Shown here: positions 356-38,997 of the stretch, in pieces
Position numbering within the stretch: the first letter of the stretch is position 1
Layout of the letters: each line of letters opens with the position of its first letter
Origin: a virus
DNA: 38,997 bases
Strand: one strand, 5' to 3'
IMG/VR virus record: IMGVR_UViG_3300019471_000044
Program-made: the position numbers and the translations under genes
The notes under the pieces: generated by a model
The model's input: only the letters and a program-made list of their open reading frames with translations
Database searches by the model: none
What the model was told of the DNA's origin: nothing

Positions 356-1201
356 TTACTCATAATAGTTCACTAGATCGTCCTTATCCCAGCACGATAA
401 CCAAATAGGGCCGAATTGCCCGAACTCAAACAAGCGCCAGTAATACCCGCCATAATATCCGCCTTTGCCTGTATCTGTGATATGGGCTTCATCGAGTTCG
501 AACGAGAAGAACATTCCTGCCTTGAAGTCTTTATCCGCACCGTCTGGCAAGTTGTTTCCATTCTCATCAACCCAGTTTACCATTGATACCGGGATCCCGT
601 TCTCGAGCCAATCAAAACCAACCGGCGCGAGATAGTCGCACTTGATCTGCCAGATACCATGGATATACTTAACCTCGTTCGCTTGGTAATAGGCCTTGTC
701 CTTTGGCTGTACGGCCGTGCTTGCTTGGTTGTTGGTCTGTGGTGCTGTGTCAGCATATCGCCAAACCTCGATATAGTTCGGTTTATTCCAGCCGTAATAG
801 TCGTTCCAAGGATAGGTATTAATAGCCTGACCTGTCGCGCCCTGTGTTGAGTAGTCGCAAGAAATGAAGTATGTATCGTCAATCATCGCTCCGACGTGGC
901 CTCCAGCACCGCCAGAACTTGACATATCAGCACCCCAGCTCATAAGAATAATATCGGCTGGTTGTGCGTCCCAGTCTTGATTGATACTCACACGGTAAAA
1001 TCCGTTGTTTGCGAGTTGCTGGCCAAGAGTTACCGTTGATGGTAAGCCGATGATATTGATTCCGGCTTCTTTTAAAACTTGCGACATGATACCGGAGCAG
1101 TCACCCGTGCCATCTGCCCCATTACGGCTTCCAAACATTGAATAAGTAATTAGTCCGCGACGACTAGTAAAACCGTTAACGATAGATTGTTGTACACTCA
1201 T
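356..1201 (-). CDS. Endolysin (Cys-peptidase/amidase-type N-domain plus SH3b-like wall-binding C-domain)
   Basis: 281-aa ORF directly after two holin-like genes. It has a GDCSG...HVG catalytic-like motif pattern recalled from phage peptidoglycan hydrolases (Amidase_5/CHAP type). The C-terminus is aromatic and Gly-rich (GGYYGGYYW). Confidence 0.8.
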   Translation of the reverse strand: MSVQQSIVNGFTSRRGLITYSMFGSRNGADGTGDCSGIMSQVLKEAGINIIGLPSTVTLGQQLANNGFYRVSINQDWDAQPADIILMSWGADMSSSGGAGGHVGAMIDDTYFISCDYSTQGATGQAINTYPWNDYYGWNKPNYIEVWRYADTAPQTNNQASTAVQPKDKAYYQANEVKYIHGIWQIKCDYLAPVGFDWLENGIPVSMVNWVDENGNNLPDGADKDFKAGMFFSFELDEAHITDTGKGGYYGGYYWRLFEFGQFGPIWLSCWDKDDLVNYYE

Positions 1202-22379: not shown

Positions 22380-22453
22380 TAGCCGGGGCAGGAATCGAAC
22401 CTACATTATACGGGTGAAAAGTCCGTTACTCTAACCGTTGAGTTACCCAGCAA
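22380..22453 (-). tRNA. tRNA-like gene, anticodon UUU (Lys) if a standard 7-nt loop is assumed; non-canonical features
   Basis: Hand-folded cloverleaf: D stem ACUC/GAGU with a GG loop; anticodon arm ACGGA-CUUUUCA-CCCGU; 5-nt variable loop; T arm GUAGG-UUCGAUU-CCUGC; acceptor stem 6 bp plus a U1-U72 mismatch. Position 37 is C, the 31-39 pair is A-C, and no CCA is encoded. Confidence 0.6.
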
Positions 22454-34158: not shown

Positions 34159-34289
34159 AAAAAGCCCCACGCTCTAAAACTTTGGCGAGTCTGAGCGTGA
34201 GACAGTCAAGATAAAGAAAGGTTTCAAAATGAATATTTTGAAAGGTGTCTTTCTATACTCTATTTTAGCAGAAAAGGAGTATAGAAACA

Positions 34290-35735
34290 ATGGATAAGAT
34301 CAATAAAGTCGCTCTATATGTGCGCGTGTCTACCACTTCCCAACTAGAAGAGGGCTACTCAATCGAAGAACAAAAGGCAAAGCTGGAGAGCTACTGCGAT
34401 ATTAAGGACTGGCACATTTACAAGGTATATACAGACGGGGGTTTCTCTGGCTCTACAACCGAGCGCCCAGCCCTCGAACAACTGATAAAAGACGCTCAAA
34501 GCAAGTTATTCGACACGGTACTAGTATATAAGCTTGATCGCTTGAGTCGTAGCCAAAAGGACACGCTCTACTTGATCGAGGATATCTTCTTAAAAAATAA
34601 TATCGAGTTCGTGAGCCTACTCGAAAATTTTGACACGTCTACACCTTTCGGGCGGGCCGTTATAGGTTTATTGTCCGTGTTTGCTCAACTAGAGCGCGAG
34701 CAGATAAAAGAGCGTATGCAGTTAGGCAAGCTGGGCCGTGCCAAAGCTGGAAAGTCTATGATGTGGGCTAAAACCTCATATGGCTACAACTACGACAAAG
34801 AAACAGGGTCAATGACCGTCAACGAATATGAGGCCCTGGCAGTTAAAGAAATATTTACTTCTTACTTGGCCGGTATGTCTATCACTAAATTAAGAGACAA
34901 GATAAACGAAGAATATCCCAAACAACCAGCTTGGAGTTATCGCACAATCAGAGGAATACTAGCCAATCCTGTATATTGTGGATTGAACCAATATAAGGGG
35001 CAGACGTTCCAGGGGACACATAAGGCCATAATATCGCTAGATGATTTTGAGCAAACACAAAGAGAGCTGGCTAAACGGCAGCAGACAGCTAAAGAACTAT
35101 CGAACCCTCGACCATTCCAAGCTAAATATATGCTGTCCGGACTGGCTCAATGCGGGTACTGCCACGCGCCTCTAAAAGTCATTTTAGGTCAAAAGAGGAA
35201 AGACGGTACACGCTTCAAAAGATACGAGTGCTACCAACGACACCCAAGGAAGACAAAGGGTGTCACGGTATACAATGACAATCAAAAGTGCGACTCTGGA
35301 TACTATGACATGGATCTATTAGAGCATTATGTGTTAACACGCATCGCCCAGCTACAGAATGACCCAGACAAGATAAAAGAACTATTTTCGGACGATACAA
35401 GCCCAGCGGTTGACAAGCAAGCAATCCAGAAGCAGATAGACAGCTTAACTCTAAAACTTAGCAAGCTGAACGATCTATACTTGGACGATAGGATCACGCT
35501 GGACGAATTAAGAGCTAAGTCTTCAGATTTCATCAAGCAAAGGGCTACCCTGGAAGAAGAAATAAAAAAAGCCTCGAACGATAAGCAAGCGGGCAAAAGA
35601 GAGAGGATTGAAAAACTGTTAGATGCCAGTAGTGTACTTGATATGTCCTACGATAATCAAAAAGTTATTGTCAGAGAGCTGATCGACAAGGTGCAAGTCA
35701 CATCTGACAAGATAGTGATCCGTTGGAAAATTTGA
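34290..35735 (+). CDS. int: Large serine recombinase (integrase)
   Basis: N-terminal resolvase catalytic domain (ALYVRVSTTSQLEEGYSIEEQ, VYKLDRLSRS). It also has a recombinase domain, a Cys-rich zinc ribbon (CGYCHAP...YECYQ) and a coiled coil. 481 aa. Confidence 0.95.
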   Translation: MDKINKVALYVRVSTTSQLEEGYSIEEQKAKLESYCDIKDWHIYKVYTDGGFSGSTTERPALEQLIKDAQSKLFDTVLVYKLDRLSRSQKDTLYLIEDIFLKNNIEFVSLLENFDTSTPFGRAVIGLLSVFAQLEREQIKERMQLGKLGRAKAGKSMMWAKTSYGYNYDKETGSMTVNEYEALAVKEIFTSYLAGMSITKLRDKINEEYPKQPAWSYRTIRGILANPVYCGLNQYKGQTFQGTHKAIISLDDFEQTQRELAKRQQTAKELSNPRPFQAKYMLSGLAQCGYCHAPLKVILGQKRKDGTRFKRYECYQRHPRKTKGVTVYNDNQKCDSGYYDMDLLEHYVLTRIAQLQNDPDKIKELFSDDTSPAVDKQAIQKQIDSLTLKLSKLNDLYLDDRITLDELRAKSSDFIKQRATLEEEIKKASNDKQAGKRERIEKLLDASSVLDMSYDNQKVIVRELIDKVQVTSDKIVIRWKI

Positions 35736-35787: not shown

Positions 35788-35816
35788 AAAAATAAAAAAC
35801 CTTGCTAAATGCAAGG
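35788..35816 (-). terminator. Intrinsic terminator ending the candidate ncRNA
   Basis: Minus strand CCUUGC-AUUUA-GCAAGG followed by UUUUUUAUUUUUG. There is no U-tract on the plus strand. Confidence 0.75.
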
Positions 35817-36398
35817 ACACGAACTTTAAACAATCAACTAAATGAGCCTTCGCTCTACTTCAATTGTACGCAATTTATTGACCGATAGCCTACCACGGTC
35901 TGAGCCATAAGGAGCGACCCTATAACTTCCGTAGCGATTAAATGACTAGGCACGACTGGTTACGTCCAACTTTCACCCAACATTCAGAAATATATTTTAA
36001 GCACTAATACATTCTAATGTATCGTCTGCACATTTTGGGCTACTTGTACTTATCTTTGGTGTTATTGGCCAATCCCTCGACCTCAAGTGCAAAACGGTTT
36101 AATTTAGCATTTCTAGTTCGGTTCTTACTGCTACGCAAGGCCTACCCAGATTATTCTTTCACCGAAAGCGTCTATTGTCACCGCCACCGTCTGATAATGG
36201 TCTAATTACGCACAACCTCTATACTGCATACACCCTCAATCTTCTTACACTTCATGATCTCTTTCAATTACTCAAAAGAGAATTACTTATCCCTCCGCAA
36301 TATCTCACGGAGAGCGTAACGGGAATTATGTATACAATCCAAGCAAGGTGTCACCCTATCTACACTTGGTTATTCAGTAGATTGTTTAAAATCCGTGT
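35790..36398 (-). ncRNA. Candidate large noncoding RNA of about 610 nt (family undetermined)
   Basis: Bounded by a near-consensus promoter and an intrinsic terminator. The minus strand has no ORF >=60 aa, and only ATG ORFs under 20 codons were found by eye. The transcript is G-rich and C-poor and has multiple local helices, some needing G-U pairs valid only on this strand. Confidence 0.55.
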
Positions 36399-36404
36399 AC
36401 AATT

Positions 36405-36433
36405 ATTATAGCACTGTTAGTCGTTTTTTTCAA
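36405..36433 (-). promoter_or_regulatory. Near-consensus sigma70 promoter of the candidate ncRNA
   Basis: Minus strand: TTGAAA (36433-36428), a 17-nt spacer ending in TGC (extended -10), then TATAAT (36410-36405). Confidence 0.7.
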
Positions 36434-36447
36434 GTAAATAACAGCAT

Positions 36448-36513
36448 AATTGCCGTTGTAATAGACATTTTTAAAAATTGCCGTTATAAACACAAAAACC
36501 ACCAATTGCCGTT
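36448..36513 (+). repeat. Three direct copies of AATTGCCGTT at exact 28-bp spacing
   Basis: Copies are at 36448-36457, 36476-36485 and 36504-36513. The third forms the loop and inner stem of the bidirectional terminator. Confidence 0.85.
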
Positions 36514-36522
36514 GGTGGTTTT
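36495..36522. terminator. Bidirectional intrinsic terminator after the moron cassette
   Basis: AAAACCACCAA-TTGCCG-TTGGTGGTTTT has an 11-bp stem with an A-tract upstream and a T-tract downstream, so it works on both strands. Confidence 0.8.
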
Positions 36523-36567: not shown

Positions 36568-36990
36568 TTAAAATATACTGCTATCCCTTTCCATTTCTTC
36601 CACGACTGCAGCGGTCAGCATCTTCTCAGCAAGATCTCCCTCTTCAATTTCATCTGGACTATAATAATAATCAATGATCATGCGCTTTTCCATGACCTCA
36701 TTGTATTCGCCTCGCACAACATAGAGGTATTCATCAGTTAGGCCTTCTTCGATGTCAGCGGTAAGTTCATCAAGTAGATCGCTATAATCGTAACTAAATG
36801 TATAATGCCCATCATTGATCCATCTTTGAATCTTTTCAAGGGTCTCTACGGTCAAATCTTCAAACCGTTTTTTTCCGGACCGTAGTCGAGAAATCCCGGA
36901 CTGTGGTACTCCAGTAGATTGCCAAAGTGCATAGCCAGAAATAGCCTTATTCATCAAGACCATTTTGACCCTCTCAGTGTTAATAATCAT
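36568..36990 (-). CDS. HTH protein with unknown C-terminal domain (Aca / AcrIIA1-like architecture), moron gene D
   Basis: 140 aa with RBS AAGGAG. The N-terminal HTH-like segment is ISGYALWQSTGVPQSGISRLRSGKKRFEDLTVETLEKI and the C-terminal half is acidic. It is the last gene of the cassette. Confidence 0.7.
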   Translation of the reverse strand: MIINTERVKMVLMNKAISGYALWQSTGVPQSGISRLRSGKKRFEDLTVETLEKIQRWINDGHYTFSYDYSDLLDELTADIEEGLTDEYLYVVRGEYNEVMEKRMIIDYYYSPDEIEEGDLAEKMLTAAVVEEMERDSSIF

Positions 36991-37001
36991 TTTAAATCTC
37001 C

Positions 37002-37424
37002 TTAAATAACATCTTTTTTAGTTTTAAAACCTTTGTAGTAACATTTCATTTCATAGTCTAGACTTGTAGCGTTGATAAATCTGTATTTATCAAGATCAAG
37101 ACTCTCAACTTTTTCAATTATTTTGTCTAAATGATTTTTTATAATATCTACAAAATTAAGTTTACTCGCTTTCACGTTAACAATCAAGTGGCCATTTTCT
37201 AAATCATGATATTGATTATCTGCAGAATGGTTAGATAATCGGATTTCATACTTGCCGAAATCTTTATATGCGCTGTCTTTCATACTTGATAAAGACCAGC
37301 CGTCTAGTTCGTCAAATGCTTGTTCCAATTCGTCCATTGCTTGAGCGTACTCTCTGCGTTGTTTGTCGCTACGATTAAAACTGCGTTTTCTGTACGCGTT
37401 ATATTTACTTTTTCCGTATGCCAT
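37002..37424 (-). CDS. Hypothetical protein, moron gene C (140 aa)
   Basis: RBS AAGAGGT. The N-terminus is basic (KSKYNAYRKRSFNRSDKQRR). No motif recognised. Very AT-rich. Confidence 0.65.
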   Translation of the reverse strand: MAYGKSKYNAYRKRSFNRSDKQRREYAQAMDELEQAFDELDGWSLSSMKDSAYKDFGKYEIRLSNHSADNQYHDLENGHLIVNVKASKLNFVDIIKNHLDKIIEKVESLDLDKYRFINATSLDYEMKCYYKGFKTKKDVI

Positions 37425-37455
37425 TTTTGTCTACCTCTTTCTTTATCTTGGTTAC

Positions 37456-37484
37456 AGTATACTATATTGCTTGCTTTACAGCAA
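37456..37484 (-). promoter_or_regulatory. Internal promoter P2 of the moron cassette
   Basis: Minus strand: TTGCTG (37484-37479), a 17-nt spacer, then TATACT (37461-37456). The spacer and -35 box are covered by the 32-bp palindrome. Confidence 0.5.
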
Positions 37485-37493
37485 GCAATATAG
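37462..37493. promoter_or_regulatory. Perfect 32-bp palindrome (13-bp arms, 6-bp spacer): operator and/or hairpin
   Basis: CTATATTGCTTGC-TTTACA-GCAAGCAATATAG. There is no U-tract after it on the minus strand. Confidence 0.8.
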
Positions 37494-37511
37494 CTAAAAA
37501 AATAAAAGTTT

Positions 37512-37781
37512 TTATTCTGCCATGTCTAAGTATCCGCATTCTTCAAGGGTTTTTATTCTTTTTTCGACTTCCTCGAATTGATAAGCGTAGTTACCGCGAA
37601 AGACTTCGTAAACAATATCTCCCTCGTTGGTTTCGTATTTTACAAACCCGTCAAAGATTGTGCTGAAAATAATAGGTTCTAGCTCAAGGCCGTTAAATAC
37701 AATCTCATCGAGTGCTTGTTCTGCAGATAGGATCTCGAATGTTTCGCTGATGTGATCTACTTTCATTATAACGTTTTTCAT
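37512..37781 (-). CDS. Small acidic protein, moron gene B (89 aa)
   Basis: RBS AAGAGGA. My hand count gives about 20 Asp/Glu against 7 Lys/Arg. Confidence 0.65.
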   Translation of the reverse strand: MKNVIMKVDHISETFEILSAEQALDEIVFNGLELEPIIFSTIFDGFVKYETNEGDIVYEVFRGNYAYQFEEVEKRIKTLEECGYLDMAE

Positions 37782-37804
37782 TTTATTTTCCTCTTTTATT
37801 TATT

Positions 37805-38152
37805 TTAATCTTCGTTCCATTCAAGCTCTTCGCCGTTGTGGCGATTTGCAGCGTAACTTAATTCAGTTTCGATTAGGTATTCGGCAAAATCGTTAACGTC
37901 GGCGTCGCACCAGTTCGAGCTATTATCAATATCAAGTGGAAATTCAAATTCTGCATTTTCTAAACCATCACGCCAATAACTTTTTTCGAGTGAAATGACG
38001 TAAACTATATTTTCTTCATCGTTACCAAAGCTCCCAATTTCTCTTGTATCTACGCTACCGTCTTTATACACGATCGCTTCCATACCGTCCCAGCCAACTT
38101 GACAAGCAATTTTGTTTGCTACTTTTTTAATGCTTGCGTTTACTTTTGTCAT
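37805..38152 (-). CDS. Small acidic protein, moron gene A (115 aa)
   Basis: First gene after P1. My hand count gives about 26 Asp/Glu against 9 Lys/Arg. Confidence 0.65.
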   Translation of the reverse strand: MTKVNASIKKVANKIACQVGWDGMEAIVYKDGSVDTREIGSFGNDEENIVYVISLEKSYWRDGLENAEFEFPLDIDNSSNWCDADVNDFAEYLIETELSYAANRHNGEELEWNED

Positions 38153-38201
38153 TTTCTTTTACCTGAGATCTTCTTGATCTCCCTTTCTTTATCTTGATTG
38201 A

Positions 38202-38230
38202 ATTATATCACTATACTTGCTGTACGTCAA
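38202..38230 (-). promoter_or_regulatory. Strong sigma70 promoter P1 of the moron cassette
   Basis: Minus strand: TTGACG (38230-38225), a 17-nt spacer, then TATAAT (38207-38202). The inverted repeat TACTTG-N8-CAAGTA overlaps the -35 box and spacer. Confidence 0.75.
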
Positions 38231-38285
38231 GTACTTCTACAAAAATAATTAAAGATTTTTTTAATTTGTAACTAGTTTCAGCGCA

Positions 38286-38313
38286 CAAAAAAAGCCCTCC
38301 CGAAATGGGAGGG
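38286..38313 (-). terminator. Intrinsic terminator ending the late operon
   Basis: Minus strand CCCUCCC-AUUUC-GGGAGGG followed by CUUUUUUUG, 9 nt after the stop of the wrap-around gene. Confidence 0.85.
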
Positions 38314-38321
38314 GAAGTACA

Positions 38322-38997
38322 TTATATAGGAACTGCTTCGAGCACTTCTACTCGTTTTAGTAAGTTTTGAAACGCTTCTTTTGATACGTAAGCCGTGCTG
38401 GCCTGGTGGCTAGTAAGGAAGTTGTCTCCACCATTCCTGAGCTTTTCGTCGATCAGCGCGTCAAGGCCCAACTCTAAGTGTTTATTTTTAATGTTGCTTG
38501 TCATTTGAGCTTGTAACGTGGTATATGTTGCAAAAGTCTGATAAGCCATTTCCGAGGTCATATACGCGCTCAAGTCAACCGCTGGTGCTGTTGATGCCGG
38601 CTTGTTTTCCAAAGCCTCCACGCGCTTTTCTAGTGGCCCTAAATCGAGCGTTTGAACCGTTGGAGCTGGTTTATTCTCTAGCGCTTGGACCGATAGGGCC
38701 AATGATTGTACTCGGCTTTCTAATGGTCCAAGATCAACCGTTGTAGCTTGTGGCCGTGCTTCGAGTGCTTCGATCCGTGCGACTAGTGGCCCGTCATTGT
38801 ACGCTTGTACAGTGTGGCCAGCGAGATAGTTTGCGATCTCGTCGCGTAAGCTGACCTTACCAAGCTCAACCATCTCCGCTGACTGGTATTCCTCCGCTGA
38901 CTGGACCACGTCAACTCTGACGCTCTGGTCGCTGGGAAATACGTAGCCGGCGCACTCAACCTCGACAAGATAGCTCTCAACCGGTAGCACCTTGGGA
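38322..38997 (-). CDS. 3' part of the wrap-around last late gene (coiled-coil repeat C-terminus)
   Basis: Continuous with 1-342 through the overlap, since 38871-38997 equals 1-127. The C-terminus has reiterated units: IEALEARPQATTVDLGPLESRVQSL, VQALENKPAPTVQTLDLGPLEKRVEALENKPAS. Confidence 0.8.
   Translation of the reverse strand, partial: PKVLPVESYLVEVECAGYVFPSDQSVRVDVVQSAEEYQSAEMVELGKVSLRDEIANYLAGHTVQAYNDGPLVARIEALEARPQATTVDLGPLESRVQSLALSVQALENKPAPTVQTLDLGPLEKRVEALENKPASTAPAVDLSAYMTSEMAYQTFATYTTLQAQMTSNIKNKHLELGLDALIDEKLRNGGDNFLTSHQASTAYVSKEAFQNLLKRVEVLEAVPI
38871..38997. repeat. Terminal overlap copy 2 (identical to 1-127)
   Basis: See copy 1. Confidence 0.95.

Follow-up and report, generated by a model that had tools for sequence, protein, structure and literature searches.

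The locus studied here raises the question of whether four small genes, packed into an AT-rich cassette of a viral genome, form an anti-CRISPR (Acr) operon directed against CRISPR (clustered regularly interspaced short palindromic repeat) systems and, if so, which of their products act against host defence. The cassette occupies positions 36,568 to 38,230 of the IMG/VR virus record IMGVR_UViG_3300019471_000044, the whole analysed stretch of 38,997 nucleotides (nt) being called the window hereafter. The original prediction had read it as an anti-CRISPR or anti-defence operon, with small acidic proteins driven by a strong promoter and a terminal helix-turn-helix (HTH) autorepressor. Our analysis indicates that it is very probably an anti-CRISPR locus of the acr-aca12 type, carried by a temperate phage of oral (mitis/sanguinis-group) streptococci and organised as two tandem transcription units with homologous promoters. 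The architecture, AcrIIA5, Aca12, the Aca12 operator, the leader motif and multi-operon control are already published; what is new here is the cargo, consisting of two unannotated families (genes A and B), the first of which has a confident unmatched fold and fusions to domains of the anti-CRISPR-associated (Aca) type.

The four open reading frames A to D, all on the minus strand, lie exactly where they had been placed. The other elements described beforehand are likewise present, namely the promoter P1 (TTGACG-17-TATAAT), a second promoter with a palindrome (P2), the late terminator and the AT-richness, since the guanine-plus-cytosine (GC) content, 42.8% in the genome and 44.8% in the late genes, falls to 36.2% in the cassette, within the lowest 2% among stretches of the same size.

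The two terminal genes, C and D

Gene C (37002..37424, minus strand; 140 amino acids, aa) is, judged by homology, AcrIIA5, a broad-spectrum Cas9 inhibitor family. Its residues 1-140 align with residues 1-140 of the solved AcrIIA5 chain PDB 6LKF (E = 4e-76), its full-length identity with the AcrIIA5 of S. thermophilus phage D4276 is 83.6% (Sfi21 orf140a likewise, 84%), and it matches phrog_14794 with E = 6e-82. Furthermore, its 90% identity cluster includes a protein from Streptococcus sp. KHUD_012 named 'anti-CRISPR protein AcrIIA5' by NCBI. AcrIIA5 inhibits a wide range of Cas9 orthologues, through a mode of action debated between a block of cleavage and a block of DNA binding, and belongs to the broadest-acting of the Cas9 inhibitors with which genome editing is controlled. 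Its basic and intrinsically disordered N-terminus is reported to be essential for Cas9 inhibition (PMC7367191), and this N-terminus is kept in gene C, residues 1-30 being nearly identical to those of the type protein (MAYGKSKYNAYRKRSFNRSDKQRREYAQ here vs. MAYGKSRYNSYRKRSFNRSNKQRREYAQ).

Gene D (36568..36990, minus strand; 140 aa) is the last gene of the operon, starting 12 nt past the stop codon of gene C on the same strand and being followed by a terminator. By sequence comparison it is assigned to the anti-CRISPR-associated regulator Aca12, with 60.7% identity over 140/140 aa (E = 7e-56) to the type protein WP_033585136.1, for which Song et al. 2022 (PMC8934645) supply the sequence in Table S1; AcrIIA5 figures there as one of the Acrs that accompany Aca12 homologues. 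Indeed, gene D is 59% identical to Sfi21 orf140b and TP-778L orf52, both located directly 3' of acrIIA5, and the order acrIIA5-then-aca12 is kept in Sfi21, TP-778L and phiKSM96.

Among the closest known systems are the acrIIA5-aca12 loci of Streptococcus phages D4276, Sfi21 (orf140a/orf140b), TP-778L and phiKSM96, which end in the same two genes in the same order, with 69-84% identity for AcrIIA5 and 47-59% for the downstream gene, and whose temperate members have them in the same position near the lysis module and the integrase. They differ from the cassette by the absence of genes A and B and of the leader motif CAAGATAAAG; moreover, in D4276 the conserved gene upstream is another one and the gene downstream is shorter, and in phiKSM96 the acrIIA5-aca12 pair is transcribed from the integrase side.

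The protein encoded by gene D comprises an N-terminal HTH repressor domain (approximately residues 1-60) and an acidic C-terminal domain (approximately residues 63-140), with isoelectric points (pI) of 10.0 for residues 1-62 and 4.05 for residues 63-140. The HTH part (residues 3-60) resembles Aca11 (PDB 9LX2, E = 4e-4) and the N-terminal domain of AcrIIA15 (E = 2e-4), and the protein matches phrog_1529 (E = 4e-11) and Pfam HTH_26 (E = 0.0075, weaker than the Pfam cut-off). This basic HTH N-terminus joined to an acidic C-terminal domain is the design of the bifunctional proteins AcrIIA1 of Listeria and AcrIIA13-15 of Staphylococcus, in which an HTH N-terminal domain is coupled to an Acr C-terminal domain. 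The AcrIIA1-like build proposed for gene D in the original prediction therefore stands as a matter of design, although no AcrIIA1 chain was found among its PDB sequence matches at E <= 1, and its C-terminal domain is unrelated to those of AcrIIA13-15.

Each half of gene D is also encoded on its own elsewhere. HTH-only versions of Aca12, of 61 aa and 65 aa, are present in two related loci (L003 and L015), and a stand-alone 107-aa protein encoded on a third contig (L013) resembles the acidic C-terminal domain (E = 9e-6). Since both kinds of relative exist, gene D could be bifunctional like AcrIIA1, its C-terminal domain being a separable module that may itself inhibit Cas9. In this context, a passage of a recent preprint states that Aca12 has 'previously been described as AcrIIA36' (10.64898/2026.07.27.740549).

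Genes A and B as cargo of Aca12 operons

Genes A (37805..38152, minus strand; 115 aa) and B (37512..37781, minus strand; 89 aa) gave no informative match in Pfam, NCBIfam, PADLOC, PHROGs or PDB sequences. For these two the earlier statement that none of the four proteins belongs to a recognised family still applies, but not for C and D, which fall into named families (AcrIIA5 and Aca12, respectively). Similarly, the small proteins had been described as acidic, which is correct for A (pI 4.1), B (pI 4.2) and the C-terminal part of D, but not for C, which is basic (pI 8.5).

Both families are rare. Gene A is represented by 17 clusters in a collection of 5.8 billion proteins, none of them informatively named and two relatives being labelled 'hypothetical protein', and a full hidden Markov model search with the gene A profile retrieved 62 representative clusters among 1.84 billion; no match was obtained in GTDB representative genomes. 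For gene B the collection of 5.8 billion proteins contains only 9 clusters, all without a name. Peptide fragments of A, B and D were also sought in the full text of the literature, with no match.

The AlphaFold2 model of gene A is confident (predicted local distance difference test score, pLDDT, 93; predicted template modelling score 0.86) and displays a compact alpha/beta fold. With Foldseek this model found no fold match in the PDB (best E = 0.4, template modelling score < 0.3), and its one match in BFVD was an uncharacterised phage protein. The suggested Foldseek comparison of AlphaFold models could be carried through for gene A only, because the alignment of gene B was shallow and yielded an unusable model (pLDDT 50), so that no fold search was made with it. 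Apparent PDB matches of gene B to designer pentatricopeptide proteins were rejected, since they arose by summation over repeats with no single stretch passing, and the profile search of the PDB left only an insignificant match.

Natural fusions connect the A domain with regulators of acr loci. Residues 1-60 of the protein P0043 constitute an Aca12-type HTH, which matches the short Aca12 of L003 with E = 3e-6, and an A domain (E = 2e-12) follows in the same chain; in P0041 the A domain is preceded by an N-terminus resembling a ribbon-helix-helix (RHH) domain (Pfam HicB, E = 0.003, weaker than the cut-off). Acr-Aca fusions are regarded as a strong Acr marker (PMC8934645). The locus that encodes P0043 (L029, 100-1074) carries an orf4-like 99-aa protein followed by the fusion; its promoter palindrome differs (GTATACTTTAAAGTAT / GTATACTTTATAGTATA) and its leader is similar (AAGATAAAGAGAGGGAG).

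The contexts in which A and B recur were surveyed in 63 Aca12-type loci from IMG/VR, where A was counted in 6, B in 8, AcrIIA5 in 9, AcrIIA30 in 6, AcrIIA31 in 11 and AcrIIA25.1 in 2. The arrangement of the window, A-B-[P2]-AcrIIA5-Aca12, is shared with three IMG/VR contigs. In other loci B stands before P2 and is followed by A, an orf8-like gene, AcrIIA30 and an HTH-only Aca12 of 65 aa; by an orf5-like gene, AcrIIA30, Aca12, a ROOL RNA gene and the integrase; or by a 93-aa gene and Aca12, with or without AcrIIA30 between them. B also occurs in the simple order B-AcrIIA5-Aca12, and a relative of A without B precedes an HTH-only Aca12 of 61 aa. Thus, gene B was found in an operon terminated by an Aca12-type HTH gene in every contig recovered, in six architectures, and both A and B recur in reshuffled Aca12 operons beside AcrIIA5 or AcrIIA30, on the same strand and on mobile elements. 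Such modular shuffling of A, B and Acrs is typical of acr loci.

Relatives of A are also found elsewhere. On contigs resembling integrative and conjugative elements (ICEs) they have no Aca gene within 3 kb and retain the same type of promoter and leader as Aca12 operons, and on the plasmid-like contig L013 a 177-aa relative adjoins the 107-aa protein like the Aca12 C-terminal domain mentioned above. That contig (1-334, 1780-2663) encodes a resolvase and ParA, as well as a GEBRO RNA (Rfam RF02988, 314 bits). A 222-aa neighbour considered as a conserved partner of A outside phages was discarded, the two 222-aa proteins being unrelated to each other.

An unannotated 93-aa family, absent from the window, lies directly upstream of aca12 or of AcrIIA30-aca12 in approximately 14 of the 63 Aca12 loci (L008, 4380-4661; also L039, L048, L053-L058, L068, L069 and L073), and constitutes another candidate Acr.

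What A and B do can be approached through the company they keep. They resemble the Acrs AcrIIA24-35 of Streptococcus, recognised by guilt by association with Aca11, Aca12 and Aca13 (Song et al. 2022, PMC8934645, and later work), in being small proteins of low pI encoded on the same strand of an Aca-terminated operon on a mobile element, A having in addition Aca-fusion variants; in sequence they show no similarity to AcrIIA24-32. Their acidity, rarity and recurrence in Aca12 operons, together with the fusion of the A domain to HTH (Aca12-type) and RHH-like partners, lead us to regard A and B as strong but unproven anti-defence candidates. It is quite possible, and we propose it tentatively, that gene A represents a new-fold anti-defence family which is distributed over the phages, ICEs and plasmids of streptococci and has independently been joined to regulators of two kinds, Aca12-type HTH and RHH-like, that gene B is a second new family, and that one or both act against Cas9 through a novel mechanism or counter a defence other than CRISPR.

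Several observations tell against this proposal. A and B have no similarity to AcrIIA4, AcrIIA5, AcrIIA24-32 or the 17 tested orf families, AcrIIA33-35 having been outside this comparison, nor to any solved structure, as judged by sequence (A and B) and fold (A) searches of the PDB. Moreover, the orf5, orf8, orf10 and orf13 families, which we found in Aca12 operons, were tested in Cas9 plasmid-interference assays and kept their 'orf' names, unlike AcrIIA24-32 (PMC8934645), so that a location in an Aca12 operon is no guarantee of Cas9 inhibition. These same facts, together with the occurrence of A relatives without a nearby Aca gene on ICE-like contigs and beside ParA on plasmid-like contigs, would suit A and B being unrelated accessory ('moron') genes, with a role in, e.g., lysogen fitness, superinfection exclusion or host takeover, which have nothing but the early Aca12-controlled promoters in common with AcrIIA5. 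Such an explanation fits poorly with the presence of gene B in Aca12-terminated operons in all contigs recovered, with the two independent fusions that join the A domain to DNA-binding domains of the Aca type, with the Aca12-type promoter and leader retained by the ICE copy of A, and with a spread over phages, ICEs and plasmids which, like the acidity, is typical of anti-defence genes. We consider it rather unlikely; of the three rival explanations discussed in this work, it is the only one that keeps appreciable weight.

The suggestion that A and B could be DNA-mimic anti-restriction proteins of the Ocr/ArdA type is not borne out, since only their acidity fits, the model of A being compact alpha/beta and matching no PDB entry, DNA mimics included.

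Each new protein in the regulated operon of AcrIIA5 is a ready candidate inhibitor of Cas9 or of another defence, and gene A is the better lead, given its confident model, the lack of a structural relative and its natural fusions to Acr-regulator domains.

Promoters, operators and leaders

Promoter P1 (38202..38233, minus strand) has a -35 box TTGACG (38230..38225), a 17-nt spacer and a TG-extended -10 box TATAAT (38207..38202), with 11/12 consensus matches. An Aca12-type inverted repeat, TACTTG-N8-CAAGTA (38233..38214, minus strand), overlaps the -35 box; the sequence at this operator is GTACTTGACGTACAGCAAGTAT, with TTGACG inside the left half-site. Purified Aca12 shifts the predicted inverted repeat of its promoter in an electrophoretic mobility shift assay (EMSA), where the DNA probe was AAAAATACTTGACGAACATCAAGTAATATG, with the core ATACTTGACGAACATCAAGTAA (preprint 10.64898/2026.07.27.740549 and its supplement).

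Promoter P2 (37437..37493, minus strand) lies between genes B and C and comprises a palindrome, a -35 box TTGCTG (37484..37479), a -10 box TATACT (37461..37456) and the leader motif CAAGATAAAGAAAG (37450..37437). The palindrome, CTATATTGCTTGCT-gtaa-AGCAAGCAATATAG (37493..37462), has perfect 14-nt arms (37462-37475 and 37480-37493) separated by 4 nt. At the operator the sequence reads TGCTTGCTGTAAAGCAAGCA and contains GCTTG-N8-CAAGC, so that the spacing CTTG-N8-CAAG is the same in P1, P2 and the EMSA probe. The window holds 3 copies of CTTG-N8-CAAG, two of them at P1 and P2, against 0.76 expected, 3 copies being also reached in 6 of 100 shuffles. In addition, the homologous P2 of two related loci (L008 and L028) is TTGCTTGACGAACGTCAAGCAA, nearly the EMSA probe sequence, and the Aca12-type operator element is present in all the related operons compared.

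Since the palindrome between B and C is intergenic and has a mismatch-free stem of 14 bp and a loop of 4 nt, it might instead be taken for a terminator or attenuator between two operons. This is very improbable, as its T-run lies upstream of the stem and not downstream, the terminator scan was silent on both strands, and the stem is GC-poor (G-C pairs at 5 of 14 positions). Moreover, the 80-nt P2 module is 70% identical to the P1 module, in register and including the -10 box and leader, and related loci have TTGACG-17-TATACT at the same position with the published Aca12 site within it. The scan revealed no terminator-like site between gene B and P2 either, and transcripts from P1 therefore probably read through into C and D.

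The P1 leader (38153..38196, minus strand) begins with CAAGATAAAGAAAG (38196..38183), followed by a hairpin GAGATC/GATCTC (38181..38165) and then by GGTAAAAGAAAATG. Its sequence, AAGATAAAGAAAGGG-GAGATC-aagaa-GATCTC-AGGTAAAAGAAAATG, matches the published aca12-associated RNA motif of the 5' untranslated region (5'UTR), exemplified by the preprint RNA probe PF9679, AAGAUAAAGGAAGGGCCGAAAAGUUCGGCGGGGUAAAUGAAAAUG, with the layout AAGAUAAAGGAAGGG-CCGAA-aagu-UUCGG-CGGGGUAAAUGAAAAUG (10.64898/2026.07.27.740549), the hairpin being different but complementary. The P1 hairpin has a folding energy of -7.6 kcal/mol (z = -3.3), and its arms change in a compensatory manner across related loci (GAGTTC/GAACTC and AAGACT/AGTCTT). 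The leader of P2 keeps CAAGATAAAGAAAG without the hairpin, the purine-rich motif itself being the ribosome-binding region.

Aca12 operons are reported to carry this 5'UTR RNA motif, and the predicted control by Aca12 extends to more than one operon (10.64898/2026.07.27.740549). The loci reported by Feussner et al. 2026 in the same preprint, e.g., the AcrIIA26/AcrIIA30/Aca12 operon, share with the cassette an inverted repeat overlapping the promoter, a 5'UTR hairpin motif from the transcription start site and a predicted control of more than one promoter by one Aca12. They differ in their cargo, which is here A, B and AcrIIA5, and in P2, whose palindrome in the cassette is extended and perfect over 14 bp and whose leader lacks the hairpin.

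Some details detract from a control of both promoters, and of the leaders, by Aca12. The right half-site of the P1 operator is one base off perfect symmetry; the -35 box of P2 is weak here (TTGCTG), with TTGACG in the same place in related phages; and purified Aca12 failed to bind the predicted RNA motif in assays (10.64898/2026.07.27.740549). The weak -35 box is also the reason why P2 was missing from the listing of the consensus scan. Altogether, the acr operon architecture that had been foreseen, ending in an HTH autorepressor, agrees well with these results: C and D are attributed to AcrIIA5 and Aca12, P1 carries an inverted repeat of the type bound in EMSA, and repression by gene D would be exerted at P1 and P2.

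From these elements, and from what is published on both families, a course of events may be proposed. Upon entry of the phage DNA, the strong promoter P1 and promoter P2 would fire, and A, B, AcrIIA5 and Aca12 would be expressed in an early burst, with P1 transcripts probably running on into C and D. AcrIIA5 would then bind and inactivate the type II-A Cas9 of the host, as the literature on this family indicates, and the acidic C-terminal domain of Aca12 may add to Cas9 inhibition, as its AcrIIA36 label suggests. A and B would act as co-regulated cargo, most likely as further anti-defence proteins that inhibit Cas9 or another host defence. As Aca12 accumulates, its N-terminal HTH would bind the inverted repeats over the -35 boxes of P1 and P2 and switch both units off, a shut-down that would limit the cost of over-expression and leave low-level expression in the lysogen. 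In this respect, the locus offers a clean natural case of one Aca12 placed over two tandem promoters, usable for testing multi-operon and 5'UTR regulation.

The last alternative takes up the prophage-encoded exclusion system raised in the original prediction and sees in the cassette a system for defence or exclusion, or a module of the toxin-antitoxin kind, under an HTH protein. Although the cassette is AT-rich, ends with an HTH regulator and sits in a moron slot next to the integrase, this is scarcely credible, since the family of gene C has been characterised in structure and function as a Cas9 inhibitor, gene D corresponds to a named anti-CRISPR-associated regulator, PADLOC yielded nothing beyond two matches that are insignificant and sub-threshold (of B to ZorC1, E 0.011, and of D to RmrA, E 0.017), and the Pfam domain search found no enzymatic or membrane domain in A, B, C or D.

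ROOL RNA and other surroundings of the cassette

The cassette had been placed in a slot between the lysin and attP/int. It does lie between them, but it is not their immediate neighbour, as a gene of approximately 296 aa stands on the lysin side and a ROOL RNA gene is inserted between gene D and the serine integrase. The ROOL gene (36393..35824, minus strand; Rfam RF03087, 353 bits) is full length and has its own sigma-70-type promoter (36433..36405, minus strand; TTGAAA-17-TATAAT) and terminator (35816..35800, minus strand). ROOL is an RNA of unknown function (PMC12286853), to which its adjacency to aca12 adds a small contextual clue. The window, L019 and 7 of the 44 IMG/VR Aca12 loci with enough downstream sequence all have ROOL on the strand of aca12, 130-180 nt downstream of that gene, and the acr cargo beside it differs from locus to locus. 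Since the same four-gene cassette occurs without ROOL in L037, ROOL is an independent module.

In several related loci, the place just 3' of aca12 that ROOL takes in the window is held by a convergent gene for a 63-aa Aca11-like HTH protein, 38% identical to Aca11 (L003, 4662-4853; L008, 5167-5358, minus strand; also L039, L040, L064 and L086).

A third exact copy of CAAGATAAAGAAAG is found at 34207-34220 on the plus strand, 70 nt upstream of the start codon of the serine integrase, within a 19-nt stretch that is 95% identical to the P1 leader (region 34203-34290, plus strand); two stable hairpins come after it (-22 kcal/mol, z = -4.3). Neither an Aca12 inverted repeat nor a clear promoter was found before this copy. 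The leader motif may thus provide a shared post-transcriptional control of the integrase and acr operons. More speculatively, the ROOL nanocage RNA beside aca12 and the acr-type leader before the integrase could belong to a larger co-ordinated anti-defence and lysogeny island.

The terminator after gene D (36495..36522, minus strand) has an 11-bp stem, AAAACCACCAACGGCAATTGGTGGTTTT, followed by TGTGTTTATA, with an A-run and a T-run on its flanks. This arrangement agrees only in part with its earlier description as bidirectional, as in the plus direction the T-run consists of only 4 T. At the other end, the cassette is preceded by the terminator of the late (lysis and post-lysis) operon (38295..38313, minus strand), whose 7-bp stem includes 6 GC pairs and leads into CTTTTTTTGT, and which also precedes the cassette in L003, L019 and L028.

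The contig was circularly assembled, with an exact 127-nt direct repeat (1-127 = 38871-38997) and a true length of 38870 bp. Because of this circularity, the post-lysis gene of approximately 296 aa located upstream of the cassette is split across the contig ends (342..1, then 38870..38322, minus strand), and the open reading frame given as 38322..38990 covers the C-terminal portion of this gene, which starts at 342 on the minus strand. The reconstructed gene, which matches a 296-aa protein of L019, separates the lysin (356..1201) from the cassette. Elsewhere in the window, a phage-encoded tRNA gene is located between the early and late gene blocks (22380-22452, minus strand; Rfam tRNA, 53 bits).

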